A stretch of DNA of 64,000 nucleotides from Candidatus Micrarchaeota archaeon (GCA_016932815.1 JAFGCC010000017.1:3581-67580), one strand, 5' to 3'. Shown: positions 2,495 to 64,000, counted from the first letter of the stretch. Notes: generated by a model not told the origin, from the letters alone. Made by a program: numbers and translations.

Positions 2495-2500
2495 TGGACA

Positions 2501-28508: not shown

Positions 28509-28510
28509 AT

Positions 28511-29743: not shown

Positions 29744-29763
29744 GTTTTTGCTTAGGCTCTAAA

Positions 29764-29803
29764 TGTTTATAAATATTCCTATATTAGCTCATTTATAAAT
29801 AAA
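29764..29803. promoter_or_regulatory. AT-rich divergent promoter region with two TATA-like elements
   Basis: 'tttataaata' at 29766-29775 and again at 29792-29801 between divergently oriented Fic gene and MBL gene. Confidence 0.4.
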
Positions 29804-29964
29804 TATTTACTTCTTTTCCTTTATTGGAGAGAAAATAAAGATTTTCCGTTATTCAGCGTGCAGAACTCATAGGTGAAACAATCGCAGGATTGCTATTGCC
29901 TAAATCTTTGGGATTCATGATGTGAGCGTATCAAACTTATTAATGTTGCCGAAGATAATAAGCC

Positions 29965-30729
29965 ATGAAACTGACCTTCTTGGGAACAGGCGGCGGCAGG
30001 ATAAACCTGATAAAGCAAATCCGCGCAACCGGCGGAATCTGCATCTCCGGGCCAAAGAACATACACATCGACCCAGGCCCCGGAGCCTTAGTTCGCATGA
30101 GGAACAAGGGAATGGACCCGCTCAAGACCGACATAATGGTCGTAACCCACTCGCACATTGACCACATAGGGGACGCAGGCGTCCTAATAGAAGGGATGAG
30201 CCACTACGCGCTCAAAAAGAAGGGCACGCTGATAGCATCCGAAGACGCCCTAGGTGGGGAGATAAAGGGGCAGAAGATAAGCGGGTTCCACCTCTCCCGC
30301 CTTGAAACTGTGGTGAGGGCGAAGCCCGGGGAAACATTTGAGTTCGAAGGGGGGAAAATCAGCTTCAAAAAGGCAGTCCACGACGATTTCCCCGCATTCG
30401 GCTTCGTATTGGAAATGGGCGGGAAAAAGATAGGATACACAGGAGATACCGAATACTTTGAGGAAATGCCCGAAGAATACGCGGGCTGCGACCTCCTAAT
30501 AATCAACGTGATGAAGCCCTTTGCAGACGAGTACAAGGGGCATTTGACAGCAGAAGACGCCTCGAAACTCATAGGGAGGGTGCAGCCCAAGCTCGCAATC
30601 CTTACCCACATGGGCCTCAAGATGCTCCGCTACCCCGCAGAAAAGCGCGCATCCGAAGTGGAAGCCGAAACAGGCGTAAGGGTAATTGCGGCAGAAGACG
30701 GGATGGAAATTGGGGAATCGGAATTCTAG
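29965..30729 (+). CDS. MBL-fold metallo-hydrolase
   Basis: 'VVTHSHIDHIGDAG' metal-binding motif. Confidence 0.75.
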   Translation: MKLTFLGTGGGRINLIKQIRATGGICISGPKNIHIDPGPGALVRMRNKGMDPLKTDIMVVTHSHIDHIGDAGVLIEGMSHYALKKKGTLIASEDALGGEIKGQKISGFHLSRLETVVRAKPGETFEFEGGKISFKKAVHDDFPAFGFVLEMGGKKIGYTGDTEYFEEMPEEYAGCDLLIINVMKPFADEYKGHLTAEDASKLIGRVQPKLAILTHMGLKMLRYPAEKRASEVEAETGVRVIAAEDGMEIGESEF

Positions 30730-44349: not shown

Positions 44350-45354
44350 TCAAACCTTCATTTTCCGTATTTTTATTCCCGCCTGCCTGAATAAATTCTC
44401 AGGGGCTTCGGTAATAGGGTAATCCGCGTTGTAGATTACTTCGGTTATTCCCGCGTTTATTATCATTCTCGTGCAGTATAGGCAGGGGACGAAAGTGCAG
44501 TACATGACTCCCCCCTTGAGGCTTATCCCGTGGTAGGCTGCCTGCACTATTGCGTTTTCTTCTCCGTGTGCGCAGTAGCACTCATCGAGCTTGGAGCCGG
44601 ATTTCGCAAAGGAGTTGCATCTTGGGCACCCGCCTTCGTTGCAGTTTTTGGTGCCTCTCGGAGTCCCGTTGTATCCGGTGGAGATTATCCTCTTATCCTT
44701 TACGATTATTGCGGCAACCTTCCTTTTCATGCAGTTGCTCCTTGAGGCGACCTCCCTTGCGATGTTCATGAAGTATTCGTCCCAGCTAGGGCGCTCGTCC
44801 TTGAACTCAGTTGAGAATTCGGATAGGAGGTGGCCGATTTTTTCTTCTAAGCTCTCCATAGAGGAGTCGTTTATGAGCTTCCTATCTGCAACCTCGAATG
44901 CGTCTTTTAGGCTCTGTTTCGTTTTTTCCTCGTTTTTCAATTCCAGTTCCTCTATTTTCGTGAATGCTTCGAGGGTTTTGGGGTCGCTCTCCCTGCCCCG
45001 CTCCTTCATCCTCTCAAAGCGGGTTTCCGCAGGCGCGGTAACGTAAATTATGAATGAGTTATTGAGGCTCTTTATTTTCTTTGCCTCCGCCTCGTTCCTA
45101 ATTGAGTCTATTGCGTAGTTTCTGTCTTTTCCCAATTTTTCTATCGTTTTTTCTGCAAGTGCGCTTGGGCCGAGCTTTTCCCTCAACTCGTTTCCCTTTT
45201 CAATGAGGTTTGCGCGGGTTACCTCTTTTCCTTCTGCTGCAAGCTCTTCCCTTATTACATCCGATAATGAGAGGCATTCAAATCCCTTTGCCTTGAGGCA
45301 TTCTGCAACGGTTCCTTTCCCAGCGCAATTTTCACCCGTAAGCCCTATGATCAT
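44350..45354 (-). CDS. fusion protein: N-terminal P-loop nucleotide kinase-like domain + C-terminal dCMP/cytidine deaminase domain
   Basis: N-term 'MIIGLTGENCAGKGTV' P-loop; C-term deaminase zinc motifs 'CAHGEENAI' and 'PCLYCTRMI'. Confidence 0.7.
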   Translation of the reverse strand: MIIGLTGENCAGKGTVAECLKAKGFECLSLSDVIREELAAEGKEVTRANLIEKGNELREKLGPSALAEKTIEKLGKDRNYAIDSIRNEAEAKKIKSLNNSFIIYVTAPAETRFERMKERGRESDPKTLEAFTKIEELELKNEEKTKQSLKDAFEVADRKLINDSSMESLEEKIGHLLSEFSTEFKDERPSWDEYFMNIAREVASRSNCMKRKVAAIIVKDKRIISTGYNGTPRGTKNCNEGGCPRCNSFAKSGSKLDECYCAHGEENAIVQAAYHGISLKGGVMYCTFVPCLYCTRMIINAGITEVIYNADYPITEAPENLFRQAGIKIRKMKV

Positions 45355-45445: not shown

Positions 45446-46207
45446 ATGCAAAACAATAAAAAAACCCATAATCATATGTTTATCCATTGGTGGATTGGCA
45501 TGGAAGGAAAGCGAAGGTCCCGCGGTGGCGGTCAACGGAATTCCGGCTCGGTTCCGGTGAAGGTGGAAGAGGGAATCGCCTCTAAAATTCCGGAACCGGT
45601 GGAACGTTCTGAGAATGGGAAAATGGATGCCGTTCCGCAGGTTGAAACTCCTACTTATAGCATGGGCGAATTAGGTCAATATCTCGATAATGCTAAGCCT
45701 TACATCGTTACTCCTTCATATACGAATCCTCCAAGGGAGGACCTCGGTGGAGTTTCGGACTACCTAACCAAGAACTACAAAGTGCGTGTAAATCTTACCA
45801 AAGATGACATCAGCTCCGTGGAAATTCTAGACAAAACTGGGTTGATGATTACAGGTATTGGAGTTCTTGGGAAACCTGAAGAACTGACTATAATGGCTAT
45901 TGATTTCGGAGAGAACAATCCGCTAATCAAGGGGGAGGCTTTATTCTTTGCTACGCCAGAGGGGGTAAGCATGTATTTCTTCGACAAATCTACTGGTGAG
46001 TTCTCCCATGGATTAGCTAATCTATATGGGGAGGGCCTGTCCCGCGGACCCACGAAGGTAGGATTGGACATCACTAAGGAAAGCATCGCACTGCTTGTTA
46101 TCCCCGATGCTGGCAATACTGCTGCTCAAGTGGAGATAGGGTTGGTCAATAACTCTGAATATAAGATGGGATATTCATATACTGGAATCTTTGGAGTAAA
46201 TAGGTAA
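45446..46207 (+). CDS. hypothetical protein A (cassette copy 1); compositionally atypical
   Basis: 253 aa; core homologous to 49565..50428 ('AIDFGENNPLIKGEALFFATPEG' vs 'AIDLGKDNPVVQGELLVFATPQS'; '...TGIFGVNR' vs '...TAIFGLTRPP'); N-terminal 'SVPVKVEEG'. Confidence 0.6.
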   Translation: MQNNKKTHNHMFIHWWIGMEGKRRSRGGGQRNSGSVPVKVEEGIASKIPEPVERSENGKMDAVPQVETPTYSMGELGQYLDNAKPYIVTPSYTNPPREDLGGVSDYLTKNYKVRVNLTKDDISSVEILDKTGLMITGIGVLGKPEELTIMAIDFGENNPLIKGEALFFATPEGVSMYFFDKSTGEFSHGLANLYGEGLSRGPTKVGLDITKESIALLVIPDAGNTAAQVEIGLVNNSEYKMGYSYTGIFGVNR

Positions 46208-46230
46208 TATCTCTTCATGGTGTTGTTTTC

Positions 46231-47883
46231 ATGGCGCTCTCAGCAAGAAAAAAGCAAGGTGGGGTGGGGGAACAAACTAAGACCTCCGACAATCCGGTTA
46301 GATTGCTTGAGAATGTAAAAGCAGCAACCGGAGAGGACCTAAACGAAGCACAAATCCTAAATGATGCACAGCTTTGGGAACAATACCTCAATCCCTCACA
46401 AGAACGCATCGAGGAAGAAAAGAGCAAATTATATTCCAACCTTGCGGATGCAGGATTTTCCACCGAAGATGCGAGTAGGATATCAGAACAATATGGGCGC
46501 CTGCGCGCAAAAGCGGCAAAAGGGTCTCTGAGCAATGAAGAGCTGAGCGCTCTCTCACAGATTGCAGGTGTCGCAAAGGAGGCAAAAGAATCTGCTGCAA
46601 ACACCTCCGAAGAACGAGCAACAGCACTAGTTTCCCTATGGTCCCAAGCACAGTCAAAAACGGCGGACACAAGCTACTACGATTCAGAAGCAATAAAGAT
46701 GCGGGACATCTTCTATGCGATGCTAACTGAAAGCAACCCGAACCAGCAGAAAATAAACGAGCTGGCAAAGAACGACGAAAGCGTCCGCAGCGTGTTCATG
46801 ATGGACGCTTCCTTTGCAAGGGAATTATACTCCAAGGGGACCTCCGCAGACAAGGTGTGGCAAGCCCTAATACAAAGGCAACAGGAAACCACAACCGCAT
46901 TCATGAAAGATGGCGCGAACAGTAAGCTCCTGCATGACGCGGAAATTGAAGACCTTCGCGCAGTCCTGGGAGAACAGCGCAACGATGCAAACCAGAGGAT
47001 TGGTTATATTGAAGCGGGAGATTACGCCTCCCTTGGCAAGATGGACGAAATTAACCGGATGTATTCAAACGACGTAGTGCTGCGCATGCAGAACAAGCTC
47101 GGCCTAGCAAGCGAGTCGGGGAATTTCACCGACTTCCAGATGGCGCAGATGCAGTCCGTATTGGCAGATGTCGCACTTATAATGTCAAATGCCAGCCCGC
47201 TTGGGGCGGTTGAAGAAGACTCCTCTGCGGAAGTGGGAATAGCAACATTGGATTCATTCATAAACGAGCAGCAGAGGGCAATGGACGAAACGCAGACCCT
47301 GCAGTCGCTAGACGAGCAAGTCTCAGAACTAATGGCATTGGCAAGGGAAACTGTGTCCGGTGGAGTGCTAACCGAAGAAGCGCAGGAGAAGCTGGGAGAG
47401 CTTGGGCTTCCAATGGGTGCCAATAGCGCGGATGCCGAGAAATTCGTAAGGGGGGCAAGGGAACGCGCGAACGAAGAGATATCGCGGGTGCAGGAATTAA
47501 GGAGCGTCCAGAATGGCGGCGCATACGAGGTTTCCGCATTCTACTCCGAAGAGCGCGCCCTAGAAACAATTGATTCGGTAAAGAGCATAATCCGCGAAGC
47601 GCCCACAGAATTCTCGATTCTTGCCGCAGAGGAATTCAAGGGGGATGAACTAATAAACATCGGGACGGTTGAAGAGGTTCTTGGGCAAGCGGATTTCGGG
47701 AATGCCAAATCCCCCGAAACAGTCGTCTTAACTGCCCTTAGCAATCCCAACGACTCTGGGATGCGCGAGAAAATGGAGCAGGTGCTCTCAAACCCATTCA
47801 ACGTGGGGATACGGGAAGCGCTGCTCGAAGCTTATGCGCGCGCAGCTTCAGAACTCTCGCAGAAGCGCATCTCCGCAGGGTAG
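46231..47883 (+). CDS. hypothetical acidic alpha-helical protein B (cassette copy 1)
   Basis: 550 aa; homologous along its length to 50480..52186 (e.g. C-termini 'NPFNVGIREALLEAYARAASEL' vs 'NPLNVGIRAALLEAYARAVTEL', 'RVQELR' in both). Confidence 0.6.
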   Translation: MALSARKKQGGVGEQTKTSDNPVRLLENVKAATGEDLNEAQILNDAQLWEQYLNPSQERIEEEKSKLYSNLADAGFSTEDASRISEQYGRLRAKAAKGSLSNEELSALSQIAGVAKEAKESAANTSEERATALVSLWSQAQSKTADTSYYDSEAIKMRDIFYAMLTESNPNQQKINELAKNDESVRSVFMMDASFARELYSKGTSADKVWQALIQRQQETTTAFMKDGANSKLLHDAEIEDLRAVLGEQRNDANQRIGYIEAGDYASLGKMDEINRMYSNDVVLRMQNKLGLASESGNFTDFQMAQMQSVLADVALIMSNASPLGAVEEDSSAEVGIATLDSFINEQQRAMDETQTLQSLDEQVSELMALARETVSGGVLTEEAQEKLGELGLPMGANSADAEKFVRGARERANEEISRVQELRSVQNGGAYEVSAFYSEERALETIDSVKSIIREAPTEFSILAAEEFKGDELINIGTVEEVLGQADFGNAKSPETVVLTALSNPNDSGMREKMEQVLSNPFNVGIREALLEAYARAASELSQKRISAG

Positions 47884-47968
47884 CCGTGACCTAAGTAACC
47901 CTTATTGTTACCCTCTTGGGCAAACAAATAAAAAACAGAAGAATGATATTGCTCATCGAGTGGATTAG

Positions 47969-49468
47969 ATGGCAGGAAAGCTCAAGGACCGCCCTCAGGA
48001 TGAGAATAAAGCTACTGCTGTTCCGGTTAAACTTGAATCCGAGGGAGCGTTAGGCCAGACACCGGAGCCTTCAGTTCCGGTAAAAGTCGAGAACGAGGAT
48101 ATAGAAAACCTGGTCCGCGCCCGTGTAAATAGTGTCCTCTCGGAAAATCCTGGGATGCGCTGGGAATCCGCTGTGCGTATGGCTACAGTTGAATGTAAAA
48201 TTAAGCTTGCGCAGATAAAGAACCTTCAGGTTACTGATAAGTTTAGCGAGGCTGAGAAGAGTTCCCAGATGGAGCATCTCACTAAGATGATTGATGCCCT
48301 CAATTCCGTGCCAGAATTTGCCCATACAAAATCACCAGTTCCCAAAAAGGCTTCTTTAGGACATCACTTTGAATACGTGACTTTCGCAGATCCTTCTCTC
48401 CTAGAACAGGATATTGCGACTGCAGAACGGCTTAGAATATCCCGCCAACCCTTTGTAGGGGTGCAATCTCCAGATGCGCTTGGCAGATTCATTTCAAAGC
48501 CCATTGAATGGCGCTATCCAAGATTTGGCAATTTTCAGCTTGATATTGTTGAATCAAAACCTGACAAAACGCATTTCCGCATTGGTTTTCCGGGTGGAGA
48601 GAAGGATGTTGCCTTCTCTGTTCCTCTTGAGCAGGTGGACGTGCTTGCGTTTAACTCAACGAAAGACACGCCTTTTAGAGTTACCGGGTGTGTGCTCAGG
48701 GGGAAGGACACACTATTCATCGCGCTGGAAACCCCTTCTGGCATTGTGGTGAAATCCTTGGTAATAGACCACGTGCGCAACGGAGCCAGAAGCATCGGGT
48801 TTGGAGTTACCAAGAAAGAAGGAACCCTCCTAGTTACAATTTCTCCGAAAAAATTATACGAGGGAAATTTCGTATACAGGTTGTCTTTTGGGCCTAATGG
48901 CGCCTCAACAGAGTATTACCGCTACACGAAGGATGTCCCTTCCGACACCAGAGTTAAAGAAGTGGGGTCTGGGGGCAAGCGGGAATTCGGTTTGTTCCGT
49001 CAAGAATTTGATTGCCTTTCCGAGTTGAGCCAATTTCAGATTTCAGATTTGGCAAAGACACTAGACTTGGCAGGTTACCAGTATGCTGATGCTATGAGCA
49101 TTATGGATTCAATTGTTGAGGAAGGGCGCGCATCTTACACAATAGCAAGAGCAGGAGGCGATAATCCAATGAATGCCAGAAATGTTGCGAGAGAAGCACA
49201 AACGAAACTTCTCATAAGCGTCTATAATTCATTAGAGCCTTCTTACCAAAAAAGATTCGAATCCGAAGCTATGCTTTTTCTGAGACAGAACGAAATCGCC
49301 GCGCGCATAACCCGGTTGGATGAAACATATTCCGCGCTTTTGGGATTGGATACCCTGTATCTCTCGAGTGAAGAGGACCAGAGGGAAGCGGTGTCCAAAT
49401 ACAATTTAATGGCCCCTCATGAAGCGGACGAATTTTTTTCCAGATTTAGTGGTTTTGGCACAAAATGA
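47969..49468 (+). CDS. hypothetical protein C (unique, between cassette copies); compositionally atypical
   Basis: 499 aa; N-terminal tandem 'AVPVKLESE' and 'SVPVKVENE' motifs matching N-terminus of protein A. Confidence 0.6.
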   Translation: MAGKLKDRPQDENKATAVPVKLESEGALGQTPEPSVPVKVENEDIENLVRARVNSVLSENPGMRWESAVRMATVECKIKLAQIKNLQVTDKFSEAEKSSQMEHLTKMIDALNSVPEFAHTKSPVPKKASLGHHFEYVTFADPSLLEQDIATAERLRISRQPFVGVQSPDALGRFISKPIEWRYPRFGNFQLDIVESKPDKTHFRIGFPGGEKDVAFSVPLEQVDVLAFNSTKDTPFRVTGCVLRGKDTLFIALETPSGIVVKSLVIDHVRNGARSIGFGVTKKEGTLLVTISPKKLYEGNFVYRLSFGPNGASTEYYRYTKDVPSDTRVKEVGSGGKREFGLFRQEFDCLSELSQFQISDLAKTLDLAGYQYADAMSIMDSIVEEGRASYTIARAGGDNPMNARNVAREAQTKLLISVYNSLEPSYQKRFESEAMLFLRQNEIAARITRLDETYSALLGLDTLYLSSEEDQREAVSKYNLMAPHEADEFFSRFSGFGTK

Positions 49469-49564
49469 CCTGCGAACAGGAATATGCCCTAAAAACCACT
49501 TTTTCGGGCTAAAGCATAAGTTTATATATAAAGTTTCCCCTAATCTTAGCATACAGGTGTCCAT

Positions 49565-50428
49565 ATGGCGAGGGTTTCAAAACTAGAATCCAAGGGCGAA
49601 GCGCCCCAGGTTTCCCAGGGCAAAAGAGCACCATTCAAACTTGCAAGCAGGCTCTTAGAGAAGCTTACCAAGCGTTCCGTAGAGAAAGGGACCTCGCTGA
49701 GGGAAGAAGCCAGATTGCCATCCGGGCCTACGGAGAGGCGAAAATTCCTGAAAATACTCGGGGGTGCCGCCGGGGCAGCCGTTTTACTAGGCCCTTCAGT
49801 GCTCAAGGCGAATGAGAAGGCCGCCAAAGCATCTTCCAACCAAGCTGAGGTGGACTCGGTAATTGATATCCGGGATATTATGCCCTATATCGACAATGCC
49901 AAGAAGTATGAAGTTCCCCTTAGCTCAGGCCAGAAGGTAAACGCTTTCCAAACGCTCTACAAGACTAAAGAGCACCAGTTCATCGTGACGCGTGGGGAGA
50001 CTAGGGGAATCGACATCAAAGTGATAAAAGGAGATGGGGTCGTTGGAGGCGCTGCTTTTCTCGGAGATCATCTAGACGAGTTGAACATCCTCGCTATCGA
50101 TCTTGGGAAAGACAATCCCGTAGTCCAGGGAGAACTTCTGGTTTTTGCGACTCCCCAGAGCGTAGGGTTGGTATATTGCAAGAAGCAGGATAACACTTAT
50201 CTATCCGGAGCCGTCAACTTGTACGGGAAAGGTTTGTCCAGGGGCAGTGCAAAACTAGGCGTTGATTTTGATGAAGAAACAATTGCGATAATGGTTGTGC
50301 CGGACAAGGGGGACAGGATAGCGCAGGTGCAATTGCCATTTGTAGATGGCGGGGAATACAAGGTCGGTAACTTCTATACTGCGATATTCGGTTTGACGCG
50401 GCCCCCTACCAGTCTTGCAAGTCTTTGA
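49565..50428 (+). CDS. hypothetical protein A' (cassette copy 2) with twin-arginine signal peptide
   Basis: 'ERRKFLKILGGAAGAAVLLGPSVLKANEKAAKA' Tat-type signal; core homologous to protein A. Confidence 0.6.
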   Translation: MARVSKLESKGEAPQVSQGKRAPFKLASRLLEKLTKRSVEKGTSLREEARLPSGPTERRKFLKILGGAAGAAVLLGPSVLKANEKAAKASSNQAEVDSVIDIRDIMPYIDNAKKYEVPLSSGQKVNAFQTLYKTKEHQFIVTRGETRGIDIKVIKGDGVVGGAAFLGDHLDELNILAIDLGKDNPVVQGELLVFATPQSVGLVYCKKQDNTYLSGAVNLYGKGLSRGSAKLGVDFDEETIAIMVVPDKGDRIAQVQLPFVDGGEYKVGNFYTAIFGLTRPPTSLASL

Positions 50429-50479: not shown

Positions 50480-52186
50480 ATGGCGGGAATTAAAACAAAA
50501 AAGAAGCATGGCGCGAGTGATGAAGGAACAGTTTCGTCTGGATATTCCGAAAGCCTGGTGCTTAACAGTGTAGATCAGTTTACGAGAGGAGAGATGGACC
50601 TCCAGGCAATCCAGCAGGATGAAGGGAAGCGCCAGGAAATCCTAAAGCCCTCAGAAGAGCAACTGGAGAAAGAAGCAGAACAGGGAAAAGAACTCCTAAA
50701 AGATGCGGATTTCTCAAACTCGGAAGCTAGAAAGCTCGCAGATTCGTATGTTAAGCTGAGAATGGGAATGGCGCAGGGCCAGCCCACACAGGAAGAGGCA
50801 GCATCATTGTCCAAAATCTCCGCCGCCCGCGTTTTGTTGGCGCCCAAAGAGGGCGAAACGGATGAAGTGCGCGAGGAAGCCCGCAAGCAATGGGTGCAAA
50901 TGCAGGCTGAGGCAGTTGAAAACGGGCATTCGGATGTGCGCACTGTCCGCAACATGGATATTTTTTATGCAATAGCTACCTCGGAGGAAGTCTCTCCGAA
51001 GGCACTGCATAAACTTGCAAGGAAACATCATGGACTGAAGAACCTCTTTAGGAGGAGTGCTCGGCTCGCAAGGCACCTGCACGAAGATGGGGAGAACTAT
51101 CATGCGATGAGGGTGCGCCTCAACGAAGAGAGGCGCAACAGGTTCAGGGAACTCTGGAAAGACAGGGAAGTGCAGAAGGACCTAATGGCCGCAGGCTACA
51201 CCGAAAAGCGGGTGGAGGCAAGCATCCGCGCCCGCGAGGGGGCCGAGGAAGCAACCGAGATTGCATTGAGGAATGGGGACACCGAAAGGACCCAGGAACT
51301 TAACGAAAACCTGAAAGCCAACTCGGACAGCCCCGAGGGAATAATCCAGGGCACAGTGGAAATAATGGGGAGCGCAACTTACCTCAAAGACAACGAGCGC
51401 GCCAGCCTCCTAACCGCCCTGGAAGACGTTACCTCCCTGATGGCGGCGGCCAGCACCAGGCTGAGCGGGCTTGGGGAAGCCGAATCCCCGGCGGAAGCGG
51501 GAATGGAAGCATTGGACTCGTTTATAACAGAAGAGCAGAGGGCGCAGGACGAAACGAAGAACTGGGAGGAGCTAGACGAGCAGATAGACGAGCTCCTAAG
51601 CAAGAAGGCAAAGGAACTGGACGAGCAAACCCGGGAGGATTTGGGGGCATACCTGGTCCCGGAAGGCGCAAGCGCAAAAGAGGCGGCAGAATACTTAAAA
51701 GAGGCAAAAGAGCGCGCACAGGAGGAAACCGGGAGGGTGCAGGAACTAAGGACCCCGGAGAACTTCGTGCAGGACAAGGAGGGCAACTGGACGCTGGAGG
51801 AAGACACGCGCGAAGGCGCACAGTACCAGAAAATGCCCGCGTTCTACCCAGCAGAAAAGGCAGTAGAGATGATAAACGCCGCAAAGCCCATGATTGAGCA
51901 GTCCAAGGCGGAATTCTCCATACTAGCGGCAAGGGAGTTCGCAGGAGACGGCATAAGGCACCTTGGAACCGCAAGGGAGGTGCTCGAAATTGCCGATTTC
52001 GAAGATGAAGCCGCGCCCGAAACCGTGGTAATGCAGGCACTAGGCAACCCAGGAAACGAGGAGTTGAACAGGAAAATGGAGGAAGTGCTCGCAAACCCCC
52101 TGAATGTGGGAATACGGGCCGCACTCCTGGAAGCATACGCGAGGGCCGTCACCGAACTAGCTGAAAAGCGCGAGATGGCGGGATAG
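50480..52186 (+). CDS. hypothetical acidic alpha-helical protein B' (cassette copy 2)
   Basis: 568 aa; homolog of 46231..47883. Confidence 0.6.
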   Translation: MAGIKTKKKHGASDEGTVSSGYSESLVLNSVDQFTRGEMDLQAIQQDEGKRQEILKPSEEQLEKEAEQGKELLKDADFSNSEARKLADSYVKLRMGMAQGQPTQEEAASLSKISAARVLLAPKEGETDEVREEARKQWVQMQAEAVENGHSDVRTVRNMDIFYAIATSEEVSPKALHKLARKHHGLKNLFRRSARLARHLHEDGENYHAMRVRLNEERRNRFRELWKDREVQKDLMAAGYTEKRVEASIRAREGAEEATEIALRNGDTERTQELNENLKANSDSPEGIIQGTVEIMGSATYLKDNERASLLTALEDVTSLMAAASTRLSGLGEAESPAEAGMEALDSFITEEQRAQDETKNWEELDEQIDELLSKKAKELDEQTREDLGAYLVPEGASAKEAAEYLKEAKERAQEETGRVQELRTPENFVQDKEGNWTLEEDTREGAQYQKMPAFYPAEKAVEMINAAKPMIEQSKAEFSILAAREFAGDGIRHLGTAREVLEIADFEDEAAPETVVMQALGNPGNEELNRKMEEVLANPLNVGIRAALLEAYARAVTELAEKREMAG

Positions 52187-55551: not shown

Positions 55552-56073
55552 ATGGCATTAAGACCGGCAAAATGCGTCCGCGACGGCAATAAAGTTGCAT
55601 GGACGCGCCATTCGAAGAGGAGGCCCAGGCGCTCGTACATCAAGACGATGCCCCACAAGGAACTAAACCAGCACAGGATGGGAACCGAAAGCGCGGAATA
55701 CGGCGCAGTCTACCACCTGGCACCCAAGGACCAGCTAATCCTCCGAGACAACGCAATCGAGGCCGCAAGGCAGTCCGCGAACAAGGTGCTTGAGAGCAAG
55801 CTCCCCGGAGCATACTACTTCATCGTAAGGGTTTACCCGCACCACATAATCCGCGAAAACAAGATGGTCTCAGGAGCGGGAGCAGACCGTATCCAGAAGG
55901 GGATGAGGAGGGCATTCGGAAAGCCCACCGACCGCGCAGCAAGGCTCAAGAAGGACCAGCCGCTCTTTACCGTGTACGTGCACGAGGGGAAGGCACAGGA
56001 ATCCGCAGTAAGGGAGGCCTTCAGGCGCGCTAGGATGAAGCTTTCCGGCAGCTATTCCATGATTGCCGGATGA
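55552..56073 (+). CDS. rpl10e: ribosomal protein L10e (uL16)
   Basis: 'MALRPAKCVRDGNKVAWTRHSKRRPRRSYIKTMP', 'SGAGADRIQKGMRRAFGKP'. Confidence 0.85.
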   Translation: MALRPAKCVRDGNKVAWTRHSKRRPRRSYIKTMPHKELNQHRMGTESAEYGAVYHLAPKDQLILRDNAIEAARQSANKVLESKLPGAYYFIVRVYPHHIIRENKMVSGAGADRIQKGMRRAFGKPTDRAARLKKDQPLFTVYVHEGKAQESAVREAFRRARMKLSGSYSMIAG

Positions 56074-58066
56074 GGTGGCCCTTTTGATAAACGTCGGGGA
56101 AGATGACTTTCTCATTGCAACCGACATAGACCGCCTAATAGACATCCTCTCTACCCGCAAGGACGTGGAAGTCGGGAACCTCTCGCGCGAATTGAAGATG
56201 AACCGCAAGGAGGTGGAGAAATGGCTCCACGTCCTAGAAGAAGAGGGTTTAGTGGATTTGGTAAACCGCGTGGGCTCGCTCCACGTGGTCTGGATAATGG
56301 GCTCTCCGCACCCACAGGAGCATTCCCGCAGGAAAAAAGCGCCCCAGGCCCGCCCGCGGGAACCTGCCCCCGCGCGCAGGGAAACCCCCGTGCGCGAGGA
56401 AACGCCCGCCGCAATAGAGCTTGCAACAGAGATAGGCGCAATGCGCTCAGTCGCCCCCCCGCTCCCTTCAGGGGGAAGCGGAAAATCATTATTTTCGGGA
56501 ATCTTCCGCGGCAGAAGGCTCAGGAAGAAATCATCCGCAAAGGCTCCGCCTAGGATAAGCATTGAGGATGAGGAATCTGGGGCGGAACCGGAGGCGGAAG
56601 AGCCCGCACCGATAGCCCGCGAGTACGTTCCTACGCACAGGATTGCGAAAGTGGAAATCCAGAGGACCGAACCAGCCGGGCTTGAAGACGACATCCTAGA
56701 AGACGAACTACTGCAGGATGAAGAAGAGAAACTCCTTCCCCTGCGCAAAAGCCATGCCCCAAGCCGGGCGGAGCCCATCCCCACTATCATGGCACACGAA
56801 ATTGCGCCAGAACCGGAAGCGAGGATGAAAAAGAAACTAGAAAAAAGCGAATTCCTAAAACTCCCGCGCAGCCAGACTGGCAAGCTAAGGGCGCGCTTGG
56901 AAGATTACCTCCAATTAATCCGCGAAGGCAAAAGGGAACTCAATTCCCTGGAAACCGAAAAAGAGAAAATACACCGTGAAGGCTTCCTGTCCCTTGAAAA
57001 GGATTTTGAGGCAAGCCTGGACAACATAGAATACGCACTTCTTGAAAAGGAAAAAAGAATCCTTGAAGCAAAGGAGCGCTTCTCATCAATCCCGGAAAAA
57101 ATAGGCACGCTAAACGAGATACAGGAGTCCCTTAGCGGATTCGATTCCGATGCAAGGGAGCTCCTCTCAAAAACCAGGGAAGACCTGGACTCGCGCTGGA
57201 GCAGGCTCCAGGAAGTGGGGGAAGAACTCTCAGAAGAACTCGCAAAAGGCGAAGACGAAGCGATGCACGAGCGCAGCAGGATGATGCAATTGCGCGATAT
57301 GCTCCAGTCTATTGACCACGCAGAATCCCAGCTTAGGGAAACCCTCGTTTCAAGCAGGAGCGTAATAGAGGAGATGGAGGAGAAAGTGCGCGATGTTGAG
57401 GATTCGCTTGAAACGCTTTCCGATTCCCGCGCGCTCCTAGAAGAGAGGATTGAGGGAATCCGCTCAGCCCTTGAGCGCAAGATGAGGGGCCTAGACGAAT
57501 TGCGCACCCAGATGGAACAAATCGAGGAAGTGGAATCCTGGTTCCGCGAATACTCAGAAGACTACGAATCCAAGATGGACGAGCTCCAGCAATACGTGCA
57601 GGAGAGCGAGGAAGAGCTCTCCCACATAAAGAAGGCAGCGGAGCTTGAATACGTAAAGCGCTACCTTGGGGAGCTAGAAGGAACAGAGCAGAAATACCGC
57701 GACAACCTTGGCGCACTGGAGATGGAGGAAGCGAGCATAGACGAGAAAATCTCCGAAGTCCGCTCCCGCATAAAGCAGCTAATGCGCGAGAGTTCCGAAC
57801 TAATGTCCAAGTACCGCCAGATGACAGAGGGCGGAGCAGGGTTTGAGGAGATGGTCGCAACCGCGAAATCCAAATCACGCGTACAGCTTAGGACGATTGA
57901 GGAAAAAGCCAGGCAGCGCGGAAAGCTCCCAAGTTCCATAGCGCCCAGCCTGAAAAAGGCTGCGCCCAAAACCGCGAAATCCGCGCCCAGGCCAAAGGCC
58001 CGCACAAAGAAGCGTGCAAGTGCCAAAAAACCTTCGGGCAGGAGCGGAAGGAAATCCCGCAAATAG
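56063..58066 (+). CDS. long coiled-coil protein with N-terminal wHTH-like domain, Pro/Arg-rich linker and Lys/Arg-rich C-terminal tail
   Basis: N-term 'LSRELKMNRKEVEKWLHVLEEEGLVDLV' wHTH-like; >350 aa of heptad-rich E/K/R/L sequence; tail 'KARTKKRASAKKPSGRSGRKSRK'; start probably non-ATG (TTG 56063) overlapping rpl10e stop. Confidence 0.5.
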   Translation: MPDEVALLINVGEDDFLIATDIDRLIDILSTRKDVEVGNLSRELKMNRKEVEKWLHVLEEEGLVDLVNRVGSLHVVWIMGSPHPQEHSRRKKAPQARPREPAPARRETPVREETPAAIELATEIGAMRSVAPPLPSGGSGKSLFSGIFRGRRLRKKSSAKAPPRISIEDEESGAEPEAEEPAPIAREYVPTHRIAKVEIQRTEPAGLEDDILEDELLQDEEEKLLPLRKSHAPSRAEPIPTIMAHEIAPEPEARMKKKLEKSEFLKLPRSQTGKLRARLEDYLQLIREGKRELNSLETEKEKIHREGFLSLEKDFEASLDNIEYALLEKEKRILEAKERFSSIPEKIGTLNEIQESLSGFDSDARELLSKTREDLDSRWSRLQEVGEELSEELAKGEDEAMHERSRMMQLRDMLQSIDHAESQLRETLVSSRSVIEEMEEKVRDVEDSLETLSDSRALLEERIEGIRSALERKMRGLDELRTQMEQIEEVESWFREYSEDYESKMDELQQYVQESEEELSHIKKAAELEYVKRYLGELEGTEQKYRDNLGALEMEEASIDEKISEVRSRIKQLMRESSELMSKYRQMTEGGAGFEEMVATAKSKSRVQLRTIEEKARQRGKLPSSIAPSLKKAAPKTAKSAPRPKARTKKRASAKKPSGRSGRKSRK

Positions 58067-58186: not shown

Positions 58187-61100
58187 ATGAGTGAAGGTTG
58201 TGCAAAATCAGGATTACTTAGTTCCATTGCCATAATCCTACTACTCTTCCTATCCGGCAGCGCAGGCGTTTTCTGCCCCATAGAAAACGTGGACGCAAAC
58301 GGCACTTCCTGCAACTACCAGGTAATCCCGATACTAGTCCCAATTGAGGAAACCCTGCTTACTACCGACGACTTCGTGCAGGGCCCAGCTGAAATCGGCC
58401 AGCCTGTTAGGTGGCGGAGGATCTTCACCCCATCTCGCACCTCCAACTCCATGGAGATTGAGCTGCACGCAAACGCATTCGACATCGCACTCAACGCCCC
58501 GGTCAACGGCACCCACTTCTGGCTCTCCCCATCTTCCTGGTCGATTGAGCGCTATGCGTCTTCCCCCAGGGGCGACAAGGGAATTTTCAGGATGATTTTC
58601 AATGCGGGCCTCCCTTCCGGGAGCACAGGCGAAGTGGAAGCCGAATACTACACCGAAGCCCCCGCAATAAACGTGACGCCCCTCTCCCACGACAAAATCG
58701 CAGTGAGGGTTTCTTCCCAGACCCACTACCAGAACATCCTAGCATACGCGGACGTCCCGGACACCCAATACCGCGAGGGCGGCATCTCGCTATACCTCAC
58801 GACCAACGGCACCTTTGAGCAGGCGCAAATAACGAACTATTCTGACACCAACGGGAACGGGTTCATAGACCGCATATACTGGATAGTCCCCCACCTTAGC
58901 GAGCAGACCTACGAGATAGTCCTAATAAGCGGCGCAGAGCACCTGGATGAAAACCGCACGTTCGTAGAAGACGCCTACGAGTACGTGCGCACCAGGGGCG
59001 ACAACCTCTCAATCCAAATCCCGGATGGCCACTACCTGCGCGCGGCATTCGAGCGCCCCCTCAATTCTTCTGCCGACATAACGATTTACGCTTCAAGCAA
59101 TTCCTCCAACGCCTCTGTTGCGGTCTATGAAAGAAACGAGTCCACCCTGCTTGCCGATTTCGGAACCATAAGCCAATACGGCAAATACCAGGTGTTCCTC
59201 ACCCTCCTAAATGGGACGCAGGACACTTTCGACTTGCGGGTGTCCGGAGGGGAAGTCGTTTTCGATTACGTCACCGACCCGCCCTACAACGACACGATGA
59301 TGTCGCTCAACCCCAACTTCCGCTGGGTGCTGGATGGGGATTTCACAGACGAGATGGGCAATCTGGACGGAACTCCGGGGCAGGCACCCGATTACGTTGC
59401 CACGATAATCCCCCACAGCGAGCATCCCCAGTGCGGAGATTTCACGCCCAACGACGAGATGCACGTAGCCGACGACCCCCTCATAAACACGGGAAGCGGC
59501 TACGTGGGGGAAGTGCGCTCAATCTCGGTATGGTTCATAGCCGACACAATCCCCACCAACGACGGGAACGTAATCTGGGGGGAGGGAGGGGGAAGCAACT
59601 CCCTCTCAGTCTATACTTATGATGATGGCGGAACCACGAAAGTCTACTGTGCCGCAGTAGAAGGCGGAAACGAAGACTGGGTGGAATACCCAATAACCGC
59701 CGGAGAACTCTACCACCTAGGCTGTACCTACGACTTCCCCAATGATGAAATAAACATGTACCTAAACGGAACGCTCGTTGACACCGACAACTCGCTCTCA
59801 ATAGGGGCTTCTCTTAATTCCCACGGAGCCAACAACGCCCTGGGCGGCCAGGACGGGAACACCGACAACCACCTGGGAACCCAGATGAGCGACAACTTCG
59901 ATGGGAGGATTGCGGATTTCGCCTACTGGAGCGGAGGAACCGTCCTGAGCGCGGAGAACATGAGCGCCATCTTCAATTCCGGAATGTACGGCTCGCCCAG
60001 CGGGGAAGTGGAATGGAACGTGTCCTCGCTCGACCTTGGCACGGCTTACACTTCCGAACCCCCCACGGGAGCGGCGAGCATAACCTCAAATGGCACAAAC
60101 AGCAACGCCACAGTCTCATGCGTGTATGGGAACTGCACCAAGATTGCGGACAGCTGGATAGACGGCACGAACATGTCCGATTCCCAGTCATTCGATGTAA
60201 ACTTCACCTGCAACTCCACAACCGCAGGCAGTTTCTCCGCATTGTTCAACGCAACCTCCGATGAAGACGCAACGCCCAGCCAGATAAACGTTTCATGCAC
60301 GCTGATGCAGCCTTCAGTTGAATGGAACATGTCGGAGCTGGAGATTGGAACCGCAGAGCCGGATGAGGGTTCGCTCCATGGCTCAGCCAACATAACCTCC
60401 AACGGCACAAACAGCAACGTCGCACTATCCTGCGTGTATGGAAACTGCACAGAAATCACCGAAGACTGGCTTGACACTACCGACATGCACGATGGCGAAA
60501 CCTTCATGGTGAATTTCACCTGCTCCAATTCCTCTATCGGGAATTTCTCGGCAATCTTCAACCTCACTTCCGATTGGGATGCCTCCCCGGAGCAGGTAAA
60601 CGTGACCTGCACTATTGACTATTATCCCTCAATCCACATAATATCCGCAGTCCACCTAGATGAAAACAGGCTATTCATAGAAGACGTTTACGAGAAGGTA
60701 AAAACGATAGATTCCCTGAGGGCGAGAATCCCGCCCACACACTACCTAAGAGTCGTTTTCGACAGGGAGCTTGACGCTTCCAAGGACATAACGATTTACG
60801 CGGCGCACCCCCCGGGCCCCGGCACCCCATACGTTGACGTTTATGAGGAAGGGGGTTCCACGGCCATCGCCTCTTTCGGGGAAATCTCGCAGTATGGGAA
60901 ATACCAGACGTTCCTAACCCTGCTAAATGGCACCCAGGACACTTTTGATTTGCGGGTAATAGGCGCGCAAGTCGGTTTCGATTACGTCACCGACCCCCCA
61001 CAGTGGGATTATAATTTCAGCAAATGCAAAAACATCACCCTCACAAACGTGGGCACCACCAACCTTACCGATTTCACCATTTACGTGAACGTGAGCTACG

Positions 61101-64000
61101 ATTCGGACATGCGCTCGGACTACGGGGACATCCGCTTCGTGGATTCTCCCTGCGACAGCGGAGGCAACCCCTTCAACTACGAAATAGAATACACCGATGC
61201 AAACCACGCAGACACCTGGGTGCGCCTCGATTACCTCCCTCCCGAAGGCAGGATAATTTCCATGTATTATGGAAACGACAGCACGGCCTCAAGCCAGAAC
61301 CCCGCAACCGCCTGGAACTACACCTACACGAGCATCTACCACCTAAACCACACAAGCGGAAATGCAATAGACACAATGGGGAACCATTCCGCCACGGAGG
61401 TGGTGGACCCGGACTCCAACATGGACGTCCTTGGAATGTTCGGGCGGGCGGATTATTTTGATGGCAGCGACTACCTTGACAACAACCCCAAGTGGTCGGT
61501 AACCGCCCCGTTTGCCTACGAAGCGTGGATACGCGCCGATACTTCCTCCTCCGACATGATAATCCTAGAAGACGGAGCGCAGGTGCAGGGTGCGGGAATC
61601 GGGGTAAGCTCTTCTGGCTACTTCGTTTTCGGAGGCTACTATTCATCCTCCTACCGCTCTGCCAATTCCACTGCCGCAGTAGACGACAACCAATGGCACT
61701 ACGTAGTGGGGGTAAACGAGCCTGGCTACAATATGCTAGCATACGTGGACGGAGTTCTCGTGGCGAACACCTCAGGCATTGCAGGCGGCCTCAACCCCGG
61801 CTCCAACGGGGCCGCAATAGCGTTTGTCAACAACATAGACTCCACGTTCCCTTCCGGAGGAACCTATTTCACCGGATACCTAGATGAAATCCGCGTCTCC
61901 ACAAACGTGCTGCGCACATCCGACTGGATAAACCAGACCTACCTGGCAGTCGTAAACCAGAGCGGCATCGTGGCTTTCGGGGCCGAGCAGGCCCGCGACG
62001 GCTCTGGGGCCTCGGTTTCCTGGAACGTGTCTTCGCTTGATTTGGGAGTTGGCGCGCAATCAGGCGGCCCAATTGCGGGTTCTGCGAACATAACCTCAAG
62101 CGGGACCAACAGCAACATCACAGTATCCTGCGATTCCGGCAACTGCTCAACTATCAGCGAAGACTGGATAGACAGCACCAACATGACTGATGGCCAGTCA
62201 TTCATTGCAAACTTTAGCTGCTCCAACTCAACAGCAGGGAATTTCTCGGCAACCTTCAACCTGAGTTCCGCGCAGGACACCTCAATTGAGCAGATAGTGG
62301 TAAACTGCACAATCGTCACTCCCCCCGGGATAACGATAAACTCGCCTTCGGGAATTCTCGCGGACGTTACCCCCGCCCTCAACATTACCCTTGACCAGGC
62401 TGCCGACACGCTCTGGTACAACGTGGATGGCGGGGCAAACTCCACAATCTGCACTTCCTGCGGCGGGGAGCAGGCAACGTTCCTCCACCTTGCAGAAGGC
62501 AGCTACACAATCCACGTGTATGCAAACAACACCGTAGGCCAGAATTACGAAAACTCTTCATTTACAGTAGACATGAATGGCAACTACTTTGACAGCTTCG
62601 AAGACAATTCGAGTGTGGAAACCTACGAAGGGGTAACCTACAACCCCGGGAACATAAGTTTCGAAGGCTCCGGCTCTTCCCCCCCGGATTCCTGGTGGGA
62701 TCCAAGCTTTTCGCGGTGCCGCAACATCACCGTAACAAACGTAGGCTCAAGCACCCTCACGAACTTCCCCCTGTATGTGAATGTGACCTACGATTCCGAC
62801 ATGAAAGCGGATTATTCGGACTTGCGCTTTGTGAATACTTCCTGCAACAACAACGGAAGCGCGCTTGATTTTGAAATAGAATACTCAAATGCCAGCCACG
62901 CGGCAACATGGGTGGAAATCCCCAGCCTCCCCGCGGGGGGCACCACGATTTCAGTCTACTACGGCAATTCCAGCGCATCCCCGGCCCACAACCCCTCAGG
63001 AGTCTGGGATTCCAACTACGCTGCAATCTACCACTTCAACCACACAACCGGGGCCCTTGCCGACACCAAGGGGGCATTCAACGTTCCGGATGGGATGTCC
63101 CCGGATTCCAACAAGGACGTAATGGGCGTAACCGGAAGGGCGGATTATTTTGATGGCGGGGATTATTTCGGCCCGCAGAGCTGGGACCTAGACGATACCG
63201 GAACGGGCTTTGCCTACTGCGCCTGGGTGCGCTTTAGCAGCACCAGCCTGATGGTGGTGGCTGAAGACGGGGCCTACGTAAGCGGGGCAGGGATAGGGAT
63301 GACCGGGGGCAACCTCCGCTTCGGGGTAAGCATATCCTCCACCCACTACCCAATAGACAGCACGAGCACTTACAACGACGATTCATGGCACTATATGTGC
63401 GGAGTTTCCACAGGGACCCAGACCCAGCTTTATGTGGACGGCGAACTGGATGGGCAGGAAACCCGCACCGCTGCAATAGGAACCGATGCTGGAGGAGTCG
63501 GCTACGGCCTAGGCGGGAGCGCCGGAAATGCGGTATCCGGAGATGGCAGCAGCAACTACTACTACACAGGCTACATGGACGAACTCTGGATGTCCTACAC
63601 CTCAAGGAGCGCCGACTGGATAAACCAGACCTACCAGGCAATAGCCAGCCAGGCTTCGATAGTAAGCATAGGGGGCGAGGAATCCTCCGCAGGCTCCTCT
63701 GGAGGCTCCGGCAATTTCACCTCATACTCGATAAACACGACCGGCCTAATAGGCAGCTTCTTGGATATAACCTGGAACGAAGTAGGAACGGATTCGACCA
63801 ACAACATCTCAGTGAAAATCAGCGTGGACAACGGCAACAACTATTATGCGGCAACCAACGGCTCAAGCTTATCCGGCTTCACGCCCGGAAGCGCCATAAT
63901 CTACCGCGCCATCTTCACAACCGACAGCGCGGCAACGATTGCATTAACCGACATGAACATCACATGGGCAAGCGAGGCGGTCTCATGGAACCAGTCCTCA
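58187..64000 (+). CDS. giant secreted/surface protein, 3'-truncated by window end (>1938 aa), with signal-peptide-like N-terminus, DUF2341-like and LamG/ConA-like lectin modules and internal repeats
   Basis: No stop in frame from 58187 to 64000 (ORF absent from track because unterminated); N-term 'LLSSIAIILLLFLSGSAGVF'; >60 N-x-S/T sequons; LamG-type signature 'YLDEIRVSTNVLRTSDWINQTY' / 'YMDELWMSYTSRSADWINQTY'; DUF2341-like 'CKNITLTNVG..NFTIYVNVSYDSDMRSDYGDIRFVD...YEIEY...WVRLDYLPPEGRIISMYYGN'. Confidence 0.75.
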   Translation, partial: MSEGCAKSGLLSSIAIILLLFLSGSAGVFCPIENVDANGTSCNYQVIPILVPIEETLLTTDDFVQGPAEIGQPVRWRRIFTPSRTSNSMEIELHANAFDIALNAPVNGTHFWLSPSSWSIERYASSPRGDKGIFRMIFNAGLPSGSTGEVEAEYYTEAPAINVTPLSHDKIAVRVSSQTHYQNILAYADVPDTQYREGGISLYLTTNGTFEQAQITNYSDTNGNGFIDRIYWIVPHLSEQTYEIVLISGAEHLDENRTFVEDAYEYVRTRGDNLSIQIPDGHYLRAAFERPLNSSADITIYASSNSSNASVAVYERNESTLLADFGTISQYGKYQVFLTLLNGTQDTFDLRVSGGEVVFDYVTDPPYNDTMMSLNPNFRWVLDGDFTDEMGNLDGTPGQAPDYVATIIPHSEHPQCGDFTPNDEMHVADDPLINTGSGYVGEVRSISVWFIADTIPTNDGNVIWGEGGGSNSLSVYTYDDGGTTKVYCAAVEGGNEDWVEYPITAGELYHLGCTYDFPNDEINMYLNGTLVDTDNSLSIGASLNSHGANNALGGQDGNTDNHLGTQMSDNFDGRIADFAYWSGGTVLSAENMSAIFNSGMYGSPSGEVEWNVSSLDLGTAYTSEPPTGAASITSNGTNSNATVSCVYGNCTKIADSWIDGTNMSDSQSFDVNFTCNSTTAGSFSALFNATSDEDATPSQINVSCTLMQPSVEWNMSELEIGTAEPDEGSLHGSANITSNGTNSNVALSCVYGNCTEITEDWLDTTDMHDGETFMVNFTCSNSSIGNFSAIFNLTSDWDASPEQVNVTCTIDYYPSIHIISAVHLDENRLFIEDVYEKVKTIDSLRARIPPTHYLRVVFDRELDASKDITIYAAHPPGPGTPYVDVYEEGGSTAIASFGEISQYGKYQTFLTLLNGTQDTFDLRVIGAQVGFDYVTDPPQWDYNFSKCKNITLTNVGTTNLTDFTIYVNVSYDSDMRSDYGDIRFVDSPCDSGGNPFNYEIEYTDANHADTWVRLDYLPPEGRIISMYYGNDSTASSQNPATAWNYTYTSIYHLNHTSGNAIDTMGNHSATEVVDPDSNMDVLGMFGRADYFDGSDYLDNNPKWSVTAPFAYEAWIRADTSSSDMIILEDGAQVQGAGIGVSSSGYFVFGGYYSSSYRSANSTAAVDDNQWHYVVGVNEPGYNMLAYVDGVLVANTSGIAGGLNPGSNGAAIAFVNNIDSTFPSGGTYFTGYLDEIRVSTNVLRTSDWINQTYLAVVNQSGIVAFGAEQARDGSGASVSWNVSSLDLGVGAQSGGPIAGSANITSSGTNSNITVSCDSGNCSTISEDWIDSTNMTDGQSFIANFSCSNSTAGNFSATFNLSSAQDTSIEQIVVNCTIVTPPGITINSPSGILADVTPALNITLDQAADTLWYNVDGGANSTICTSCGGEQATFLHLAEGSYTIHVYANNTVGQNYENSSFTVDMNGNYFDSFEDNSSVETYEGVTYNPGNISFEGSGSSPPDSWWDPSFSRCRNITVTNVGSSTLTNFPLYVNVTYDSDMKADYSDLRFVNTSCNNNGSALDFEIEYSNASHAATWVEIPSLPAGGTTISVYYGNSSASPAHNPSGVWDSNYAAIYHFNHTTGALADTKGAFNVPDGMSPDSNKDVMGVTGRADYFDGGDYFGPQSWDLDDTGTGFAYCAWVRFSSTSLMVVAEDGAYVSGAGIGMTGGNLRFGVSISSTHYPIDSTSTYNDDSWHYMCGVSTGTQTQLYVDGELDGQETRTAAIGTDAGGVGYGLGGSAGNAVSGDGSSNYYYTGYMDELWMSYTSRSADWINQTYQAIASQASIVSIGGEESSAGSSGGSGNFTSYSINTTGLIGSFLDITWNEVGTDSTNNISVKISVDNGNNYYAATNGSSLSGFTPGSAIIYRAIFTTDSAATIALTDMNITWASEAVSWNQSS
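58938..59283 (+). repeat. intragenic repeat R1 copy a (about 115 aa 'HLDENRTFVEDAYE...TFDLRVSGGEVVFDYVTDPP')
   Basis: Same module recurs at 60652-61000 with high nucleotide identity at its 3' end ('caggacacttt(c/t)ga(c/t)ttgcgggt...ttcgattacgtcaccgacc'). Confidence 0.7.
60005..60303 (+). repeat. intragenic Cys-rich repeat R2 copy a (about 100 aa)
   Basis: 'EWNVSSLDLG...NITSNGTNSNATVSCVYGNCTKIADSWIDGTNMSD..FDVNFTCNSTTAGSFSALFN..INVSCTL'. Confidence 0.7.
60316..60614 (+). repeat. intragenic Cys-rich repeat R2 copy b
   Basis: 'EWNMSELEIG...NITSNGTNSNVALSCVYGNCTEITEDWLDTTDMHD..FMVNFTCSNSSIGNFSAIFN..VNVTCTI'. Confidence 0.7.
60652..61000 (+). repeat. intragenic repeat R1 copy b
   Basis: 'HLDENRLFIEDVYEKV...TFDLRVIGAQVGFDYVTDPP'. 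Confidence 0.7.
61000..61960 (+). repeat. intragenic module R3 copy a: DUF2341-like + LamG-like
   Basis: 'WDYNFSKCKNITLTNVGTTNLTDFTIYVNV...' through '...DEIRVSTNVLRTSDWINQTYLAV'. Confidence 0.65.
62035..62320 (+). repeat. intragenic Cys-rich repeat R2 copy c
   Basis: 'SWNVSSLDLG...NITSSGTNSNITVSCDSGNCSTISEDWIDSTNMTD..FIANFSCSNSTAGNFSATFN..IVVNCTI'. Confidence 0.7.
62695..63650 (+). repeat. intragenic module R3 copy b: DUF2341-like + LamG-like
   Basis: 'WWDPSFSRCRNITVTNVGSSTLTNFPLYVNV...' through '...DELWMSYTSRSADWINQTYQAI'. Confidence 0.65.

Follow-up and report, generated by a model that had tools for sequence, protein, structure and literature searches.

Why should two proteins encoded in one archaeal locus begin with the same short motif, while a paralogue beside them begins with an export signal? 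The question is raised by a 64,000-nucleotide (nt) stretch of DNA from a Candidatus Micrarchaeota archaeon (GCA_016932815.1, JAFGCC010000017.1:3581-67580; hereafter the window), in which five orphan genes, termed A, B, C, A' and B', lie between a deaminase gene (44350-45354, minus strand) and HisRS (52363). Proteins A and C share an N-terminal VPVK[VL]E motif (hereafter the tag), and a sequence-only reading of the locus had taken it as a short signal on otherwise unrelated proteins, serving a dedicated, possibly non-canonical, secretion or sorting route and replaced in A' by a twin-arginine translocation (Tat) signal. We find that the locus consists of tandem copies of a two-gene cassette, in which an A-family gene, encoding an all-beta core of ~180 amino acids (aa), is followed by a B-family gene, encoding an all-alpha, acidic protein. 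The account that we favour, and consider likely as a whole, is that A and C share the tag through descent of a duplicated and recombined 5' module in a mosaic paralogous family, and that the tag itself is a short linear motif.

Gene A (45500..46207, plus strand; NCBI locus tag JW721_03760) encodes a signal-less A-type protein of 235 aa, in which a disordered N-terminal arm precedes the all-beta core (aa ~55-235). It starts at the ATG at 45500 (MEGK...), which is used by NCBI and by both orthologues; an open reading frame (ORF) starting at 45446 is probably not real, because NCBI and all orthologues start at MEGK and because a conserved promoter box lies inside the longer frame. The tag of A, SVPVKVEEGIASKIPEPV, is carried as SGSVPVKVEEGIASKIPEPVE and occupies codons 17-34 (45548..45601, plus strand). 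Gene C (47969..49468, plus strand; 499 aa; JW721_03770) carries a first copy, AVPVKLESEGALGQTPEP, also at codons 17-34 and collinear with the A tag (48017..48070, plus strand), and a second, SVPVKVENEDIENL / SVPVKVENEDIENLVRAR, at 48071..48124 (plus strand). The latter is a partial tandem copy at 54-nt spacing, repeating only the first 8-10 residues of the unit (48015-48044 vs 48069-48098, 73% identity). The three copies reported for A and C are thus present, and they are specific to these sites: VP[VM]K[VLA]E occurs exactly three times in the ~128,000 residues of the six-frame translated window, always at the N-termini of A and C. The resemblance is also visible in the DNA, as had been stated: GTTCCGGTNAARSTNGA has three exact matches in the window, where the expectation, allowing up to two mismatches, is 0.33. 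From Met1 onwards the two N-termini align over 34 residues (MEGKRRSRGGGQRNSGSVPVKVE-EGIASKIPEP vs MAGKLKDRPQDENKATAVPVKLESEGALGQTPEP), and their tags are 41% identical. Both known orthologues of A, P0003 and P0004, carry the tag (AVPMKAEDDIASKVPAPV and SVPVKVEEDISSKVPEPV), giving the arm pattern VP[VM]K[VAL]E...P[EA]P for the A type. The motif was found in no further protein of the window or of five related loci, in a search extending over the 64 kb of the window and ~40 kb from the related loci, and a scan of public genome and metagenome contig collections with the tag-DNA pattern gave 14 and 10 matches, all by chance, for example an NtrC-type 'VPVKVDVRIIAAT' and random frames.

The similarity between A and C extends beyond the peptide. 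Upstream elements recur at equal distances from both genes, namely GCAAA[AC][CA]AATAAAAAA, AAT[CG]ATAT and a Shine-Dalgarno-like GTGGATT box. In A they make up a promoter and 5' untranslated module at 45448..45499 (plus strand; the GCAAAACAATAAAAAAAC box, AATCATAT and the Shine-Dalgarno-like GGTGGATTGG), which is conserved in the A orthologues of the related contigs L001 and L002 and upstream of C, where the paralogous module lies at 47920..47968 (plus strand; GCAAACAAATAAAAAAC, AATGATAT and GAGTGGATTAG). The 16-nt box GCAAA..AATAAAAAA has exact matches in the window only upstream of A and C. A local DNA alignment of the upstream and start regions of the two genes scored 39, compared with 17.2±2.3 for shuffled sequence (0/500 as high), and control alignments against the upstream regions of A' and B' were at background. 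The similarity is collinear from about -52 nt through codon 34 and, because it continues upstream of the ATG, what is shared is a ~150-nt 5' gene module and not a peptide alone. These alignments indicate that A and C have the tag in common by descent of a duplicated 5' gene module comprising the promoter box, the Shine-Dalgarno region and the first ~34 codons.

The claim that A and C are otherwise unrelated did not survive profile and pairwise comparison. Amino acids 46-125 of C (48104..48343, plus strand) have no detectable relative and no match to A'-type N-terminal profiles. They are followed by a strongly diverged A'-type beta core at aa 126-335 (48344..48973, plus strand) and then, in an in-frame fusion, by a B'-type N-terminal half at aa 353-491 (49025..49441, plus strand). 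The core region matched the A'-type cores of L003, the sister genome, L005 and L002 with blastp E values of 8e-15 to 6e-11, as against E >0.4 for A-type cores; the A-family profile aligned with C 125-308 over 165 columns (hhalign probability 84%, E 8e-6), and in a neighbour-joining tree the C core joins the A'-type clade by a long branch. The B-like region matched P0007 (aa 86-220) at E 9e-18 and P0006 at E 3e-13. Similarity to the A-family core and to the B-family domain was thus found in one protein by blastp and hhalign. Even the end of the A'-type protein can be recognized, as YRYTKDVPSDTRVKEV in C matches FKYTKEVPAGTKLASL-stop in the sister A'; since C then passes directly into B'-like sequence, the A' stop codon, the intergenic spacer and ~55 B' codons have been lost. 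By these similarities C is a mosaic, in which four parts have been fused in frame: an A-type promoter with ~34 codons, an 80-aa unique stretch, an A'-type core and a B'-type N-half. It is known only from this organism, and no whole-length homologue was found among 5.8 billion sequences. A Logan assembly of an independent run, SRR13394437, contains an identical C protein in the same A-B-C-A'-B'-HisRS order.

The wider family shows where the tagged form belongs. Few sequences, all of related uncultured archaea, are known to contain the cassette: when 1.84 billion cluster representatives were searched exhaustively with a profile, 16 matched, 14 of them genuine, P0010 and P0018 being rejected as repeat-protein artefacts. 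Searches of PDB sequences with the A-family and B-family profiles found nothing, a B-family alignment scan of the public genome and metagenome contig collections gave no relatives, and the only Pfam, NCBIfam or PHROGs match among the five proteins of the locus is the borderline Tat signal of A'. Outside the A clade, members carry a basic extension and then a hydrophobic segment, with values of 1.66-2.15 for the maximum Kyte-Doolittle hydrophobicity in a 15-residue window (KD15); the exception is one 188-aa entry that starts at the core. Many of the signal-bearing members have RR just before the hydrophobic segment, and many a lipobox-like L-A-[AS]-C after it. In the full-length ones (A', 49565-49732; L003, 4076-4270; P0011-P0023) the basic, partly amphipathic extension before the signal is unusually long, at 35-60 aa, and in A' it is real, since no alternative start is available in frame. 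A hydrophobic N-terminal segment is lacking from A, P0003, P0004 and C (KD15 0.08-0.61; 0.31 in A and 0.61 in C). The comparison of homologues that the sequence-only reading had called for therefore gives a clear division, with the tag in P0003 and P0004 and a hydrophobic signal instead in the other full-length members. Since only A, its two orthologues and C are without the segment, the tagged and signal-less proteins make up a small clade, derived within a family that is otherwise exported or anchored.

The signal of A' (gene 49565..50428, plus strand; 287 aa) is twin-arginine-like, or else an anchor, and lies at 49733..49819 (plus strand; aa 57-85, ERRKFLKILGGAAGAAVLLGPSVLKANE; KD15 maximum 1.92). 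The Tat signal proposed for A' is borderline. The ERRKFLK consensus is exact by eye and is followed by a hydrophobic stretch (aa 57-80). Its correspondence in position with the tag is only approximate, as the signal starts at residue 57, after a 56-aa extension, and its hidden Markov model (HMM) scores fall just below the cut-offs (TIGR01409, 16.4 bits against 16.7; PF10518, 16 bits against 22.7). A' and its close relatives resemble Tat substrates in having (S/T/E)RRxFL[KQR] and then a Gly/Ala-rich hydrophobic stretch, N-terminal to the same core domain, and the tag of A and C stands at roughly the place of the A' signal. The differences are that A' stays just below the curated cut-offs and has the long basic extension ahead of its signal, and that no Tat genes were found in the window. 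The tag itself has neither a twin arginine in context nor a hydrophobic region: the tag regions of A and C contain no (S/T)-R-R-x-F-L-K and gave no Tat HMM match at E<=0.1. A literature search on Micrarchaeota with Tat and on extended Tat leaders gave nothing specific to the A/B family. The idea that the tag is a homologue of the A'-type pre-signal extension was rejected, as hhalign gave E 0.62 for the tag profile against the extension profile and E 0.71 for the extension profile against C aa 1-133; only a MAFFT alignment placed SVPVKVENEDIENLVRAR over KRAPFKLASRLLEKLTKR.

A' and B' carry the pieces complementary to those of C. The first 95 aa of A', which comprise the 56-aa basic extension, ERRKFLK and the Gly/Ala-rich hydrophobic stretch, show 51% identity with the sister A', and over the first 91 aa the identity with P0022 is 73%. 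For the core (aa 96-287), A-type cores are by far the better match, at 39% identity and E 4e-41 compared with E 1e-10 for A'-type cores; in the neighbour-joining tree this core groups with the A clade, outside the three A orthologues, both with 100% bootstrap. B' (50480..52186, plus strand; 568 aa) is divided in the same manner: its N-half (aa 1-330) is of B type, being 24% identical to B-type N-halves (E 8e-26) with no match to the N-half of the sister B', and its C-half (aa 331-568) is of B' type, 74% identical to that of the sister B', P0006. A' thus has an A'-type N-terminus on an A-type core, the converse of C, so that, as these matches have it, the two neighbouring paralogous cassettes carry exchanged N-terminal modules. 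Upstream of A' (49500-49564) there is a canonical archaeal TATA box, AAGTTTATATATAAA, which is nearly identical in the sister genome (L001 7340-7400). The A-rich box that precedes A and C is quite unlike it, so that each kind of N-terminal module has its own kind of promoter.

Related genomes retain simpler arrangements. The overlapping contigs L001 and L004 represent one sister genome with the order deaminase, A, B, A', B', HisRS; L002 has A, B and A' up to the contig end; L003 has only A' and B' between the same flanking genes. C is absent from L001+L004, L002 and L003, and the A'/B' genes there are not mosaic. L003 also has two features that the window lacks, namely an additional ORF of 66 aa (3757-3957), placed between the deaminase gene and A', and a 227-aa orphan between ScpB and the deaminase gene (1927-2610). 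The type of the A core and the type of the B N-half co-segregate in 7/7 of the pairs seen, and in C the two are fused; on the strength of this co-segregation and fusion, an interaction between A core and B N-half is most likely. Gene B (46231..47883, plus strand; 550 aa), an all-alpha, acidic protein with a B-type N-half and a conserved C-half, follows A after 23 nt and is probably its partner and co-transcribed with it.

The tag is probably more than a mark of common origin. In an AlphaFold2 (AF2) model of A, residues 1-50 have a predicted local distance difference test score (pLDDT) of <50, that is, they are predicted to be disordered, and the core is all-beta at ~85, with no convincing fold match in the PDB; the AF2 model of B is all-helical, but its pLDDT of 55 is too low to justify a search for related folds. 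In a comparison of the three A orthologues, the ratio of non-synonymous to synonymous substitution rates (dN/dS), estimated for the tag from 20 codons at near-saturated dS, is 0.08-0.16 in tag codons 17-36, 0.07-0.11 in the core and 0.33-0.64 in codons 1-16. In the window, all three copies keep VPVK[VL]E, although they differ from one another in four of the six codons, chiefly by synonymous third-position changes. Low dN/dS and synonymous variation together favour constraint at the protein level, and the tag is probably a functional short linear motif in the predicted disordered arm. We regard it as probably an interaction motif of the signal-less paralogues and not a membrane-targeting peptide.

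These observations can be assembled into a history. The ancestral A form would have been of A' type, with a hydrophobic signal, of twin-arginine or lipobox type, behind a long basic extension, and in the A-type clade the signal would have been replaced by the disordered arm with its characteristic pattern. A third, diverged A-type cassette would formerly have stood between A-B and A'-B'. By recombination between paralogues it would have swapped its central segment, or equivalently its N-terminal module, with A'-B', and it would then have lost the intergenic spacer and the B C-half to become C. As for function, the tag would be read by a protein partner in the disordered arm of the signal-less proteins, and the A core would bind the B N-half, a pairing of which the N-terminal module would be independent. 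A' would be exported or anchored, and by analogy with Tat hitchhiker co-export, as in E. coli PaoABC (PMC4273604), the signal-less B', which as a partner encoded next to A' fits that pattern, may be carried along on the A' signal, the two leaving the cell together.

A number of points weigh against this account. The donor A-type cassette is intact in no genome seen. The C core is very divergent (24-27% identity, on a long branch), and ~20% of bootstrap trees put it beside the A clade. The dN/dS values, from three sequences, are thin. The tag is as constrained as the folded core and now stands on a different core type than in A, and a portable address module would behave alike. No partner or function could be assigned; the A fold has no PDB match, and the B model is of poor quality. 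Tagged proteins may exist elsewhere in the genome, beyond the loci searched.

Among the other explanations, the one closest to the sequence-only reading makes the tag a dedicated targeting or sorting signal, a portable address that, as an alternative to Tat, would direct signal-less A-type proteins and C into non-canonical export or to a particular complex or compartment. The reading is invited by the presence, in a family otherwise signal-bearing, of a signal-less member whose N-terminal motif is conserved; the motif is under purifying selection and tandemly duplicated in C, and tag and Tat modules have been exchanged between core types with both products still open reading frames. Against it, the tag is confined to paralogues that also share a promoter, and no unrelated tagged protein was seen in the window or the related loci, the scans of public collections having yielded chance matches only. 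Nor does the tag have the hydrophobic or amphipathic character of a signal, and Pfam scans of 50 window ORFs, including all of >=200 aa, found no translocon, sortase, shell, Tat or chaperone gene. We therefore judge it unlikely. What remains of the original proposal is that the tag is specific, conserved in orthologues and constrained, and plausible as a recognition motif; the argument from unrelated proteins fails, and no observation speaks in particular for a dedicated or non-canonical secretion or sorting route, for which the window offers neither a hydrophobic segment in the tag, nor another tagged protein, nor a machinery family. A bolder version, to which we likewise give little credence, would make tag and Tat-type signal interchangeable N-terminal address modules of one Micrarchaeota-specific A/B complex, with the tag sending the signal-less A-B and C to a non-canonical destination. 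Were it true, examples of such a destination might be co-export after docking to the A'/Tat route, delivery to the site where this episymbiont contacts its host, or a lysine-directed modification at psi-K-x-E, and the module swap would be a functional re-addressing of two core types. At the opposite extreme, the tag could be a neutral, functionless relic, left over from the duplication of the 5' end or from the decay of a signal region. Shared descent would fully account for its presence in both proteins, the region is predicted to be disordered, and the identity of the A and C tags is about that of the A core to the diverged A-type core in A' (39%). Yet disordered relics normally decay faster than cores, whereas the tag has a dN/dS as low as that of the folded core and below that of the flanking codons 1-16, and its hexapeptide is intact in three copies despite codon variation that is mostly synonymous, so that a relic, too, is an unlikely description.

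Selection might instead act on the nucleic acid, through an mRNA hairpin or DNA site formed by the inverted repeat of the VP (GGTTCCGG) and PEP (CCGGAACC) codons. An 8-base-pair (bp) stem (45550-45557 with 45590-45597) does appear in the minimum-free-energy fold of the A 5' region, C keeps, by inspection, a 7-bp version with one G-U pair, and GTTCCGG is identical in four of the five tag copies. The z-score of the fold is only -1.35, however, and inspection shows the stem broken in the L001 orthologue (GTGCCGATG ... CCCGCTCC) and weakened in that of L002 while the peptide is kept; the substitutions are of the synonymous type expected under protein-level selection. As it is not conserved in L001, the inverted repeat is probably a by-product of the peptide, and we hold a nucleic-acid target to be very unlikely. 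In the C tags the inverted repeat lies at 48020-48026, 48062-48068 and 48074-48080. Least credible of all is an assembly artefact, in which paralogous cassettes of mixed strains would have been joined to give a chimeric C, along with tag copies two and three. C is indeed a patchwork of modules known from one organism only, but the independent Logan assembly reproduces both protein and gene order, the paralogous modules are, at 25-40% protein identity, far too divergent to mislead an assembler, and C forms one uninterrupted frame of 499 codons with its own promoter and Shine-Dalgarno-like sequence.

Descent of a recombined 5' module, the explanation that we prefer, has familiar counterparts in mosaic paralogues, which arise by recombination or gene conversion between tandem copies, and in Rosetta-stone gene fusions. 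As in the former, the phylogenies of N-terminal module, core and B-half disagree and complementary chimeras stand side by side; as in the latter, two neighbouring, co-segregating partners are found in one ORF, C. The locus differs from typical mosaic paralogues in that the pieces exchanged have no more than 25-40% identity with the closest relatives of each and the donor cassette is not observed, and from both in that the A/B family itself has no known function. Other known tags fit less well. The cargo-loading peptides of encapsulins and the encapsulation peptides of bacterial microcompartments are tags on unrelated cargo, encoded with a shell gene. The A and C tags resemble them in being a short conserved terminal peptide with a disordered linker, present in several proteins of one locus, but the carriers here are paralogues that share a promoter. 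A cargo tag of this kind was rejected for that reason and because the Pfam scans found no shell family (encapsulin, BMC-H/P) in the 64 kb. PEP-CTERM and PGF-CTERM sorting was likewise dismissed, the PEP of the tag being N-terminal and without an adjacent hydrophobic helix. Psi-K-x-E is the lysine-modification consensus of eukaryotic SUMO acceptor sites, and the five known tag copies, in a predicted disordered segment, read VKVE, VKLE or MKAE. A four-residue match has almost no specificity, however, no ubiquitin-like modifier or ligase was seen in the window, and we know of no SUMO system in DPANN archaea.

The window as a whole is a housekeeping chromosomal stretch of a Candidatus Micrarchaeota archaeon metagenome-assembled genome, whose NCBI locus tags have the JW721 prefix. 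Near the cassettes lie genes for ScpA, ScpB, the dCMP-deaminase fusion, HisRS, an Na/H exchanger and ribosomal protein L10e, and further away tRNA synthetases, RFC, enolase and similar genes. At its end, an ORF of at least 1938 aa (58187-64000, plus strand) runs off the window; a hydrophobic segment at its N-terminus and numerous N-x-S/T sites make it resemble the giant surface proteins that are common in DPANN archaea. It is preceded by a 667-aa protein (56063-58066, plus strand) with a weak winged-helix match at aa 26-65, a long acidic coiled-coil, a Lys/Arg-rich tail and no family assignment. The G+C content falls to 0.448 at 28000-30000, compared with ~0.52-0.54 elsewhere; a Fic/DOC-domain gene (28511-29743, minus strand) lies at this dip, and the segment may have been acquired. 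Near the start, at 378-5790 (plus strand), a HerA/DUF87-type ATPase (378-1952) is followed by three ORFs without a family match, one of them of 854 aa.

Taken together, our analyses remove a tempting false lead, in that the apparent sorting tag is mainly explained by a duplicated promoter-plus-leader module among paralogues. They also document an orphan, very narrowly distributed DPANN two-gene cassette, whose members switch between exported or anchored and signal-less forms and whose modules (N-terminal address, beta core and two partner halves) have been reshuffled in a single genome, with the Rosetta-stone fusion C predicting which parts interact. If the motif has a partner, it would offer a way into the study of a protein pair whose role may lie at the cell surface of these episymbiotic archaea.

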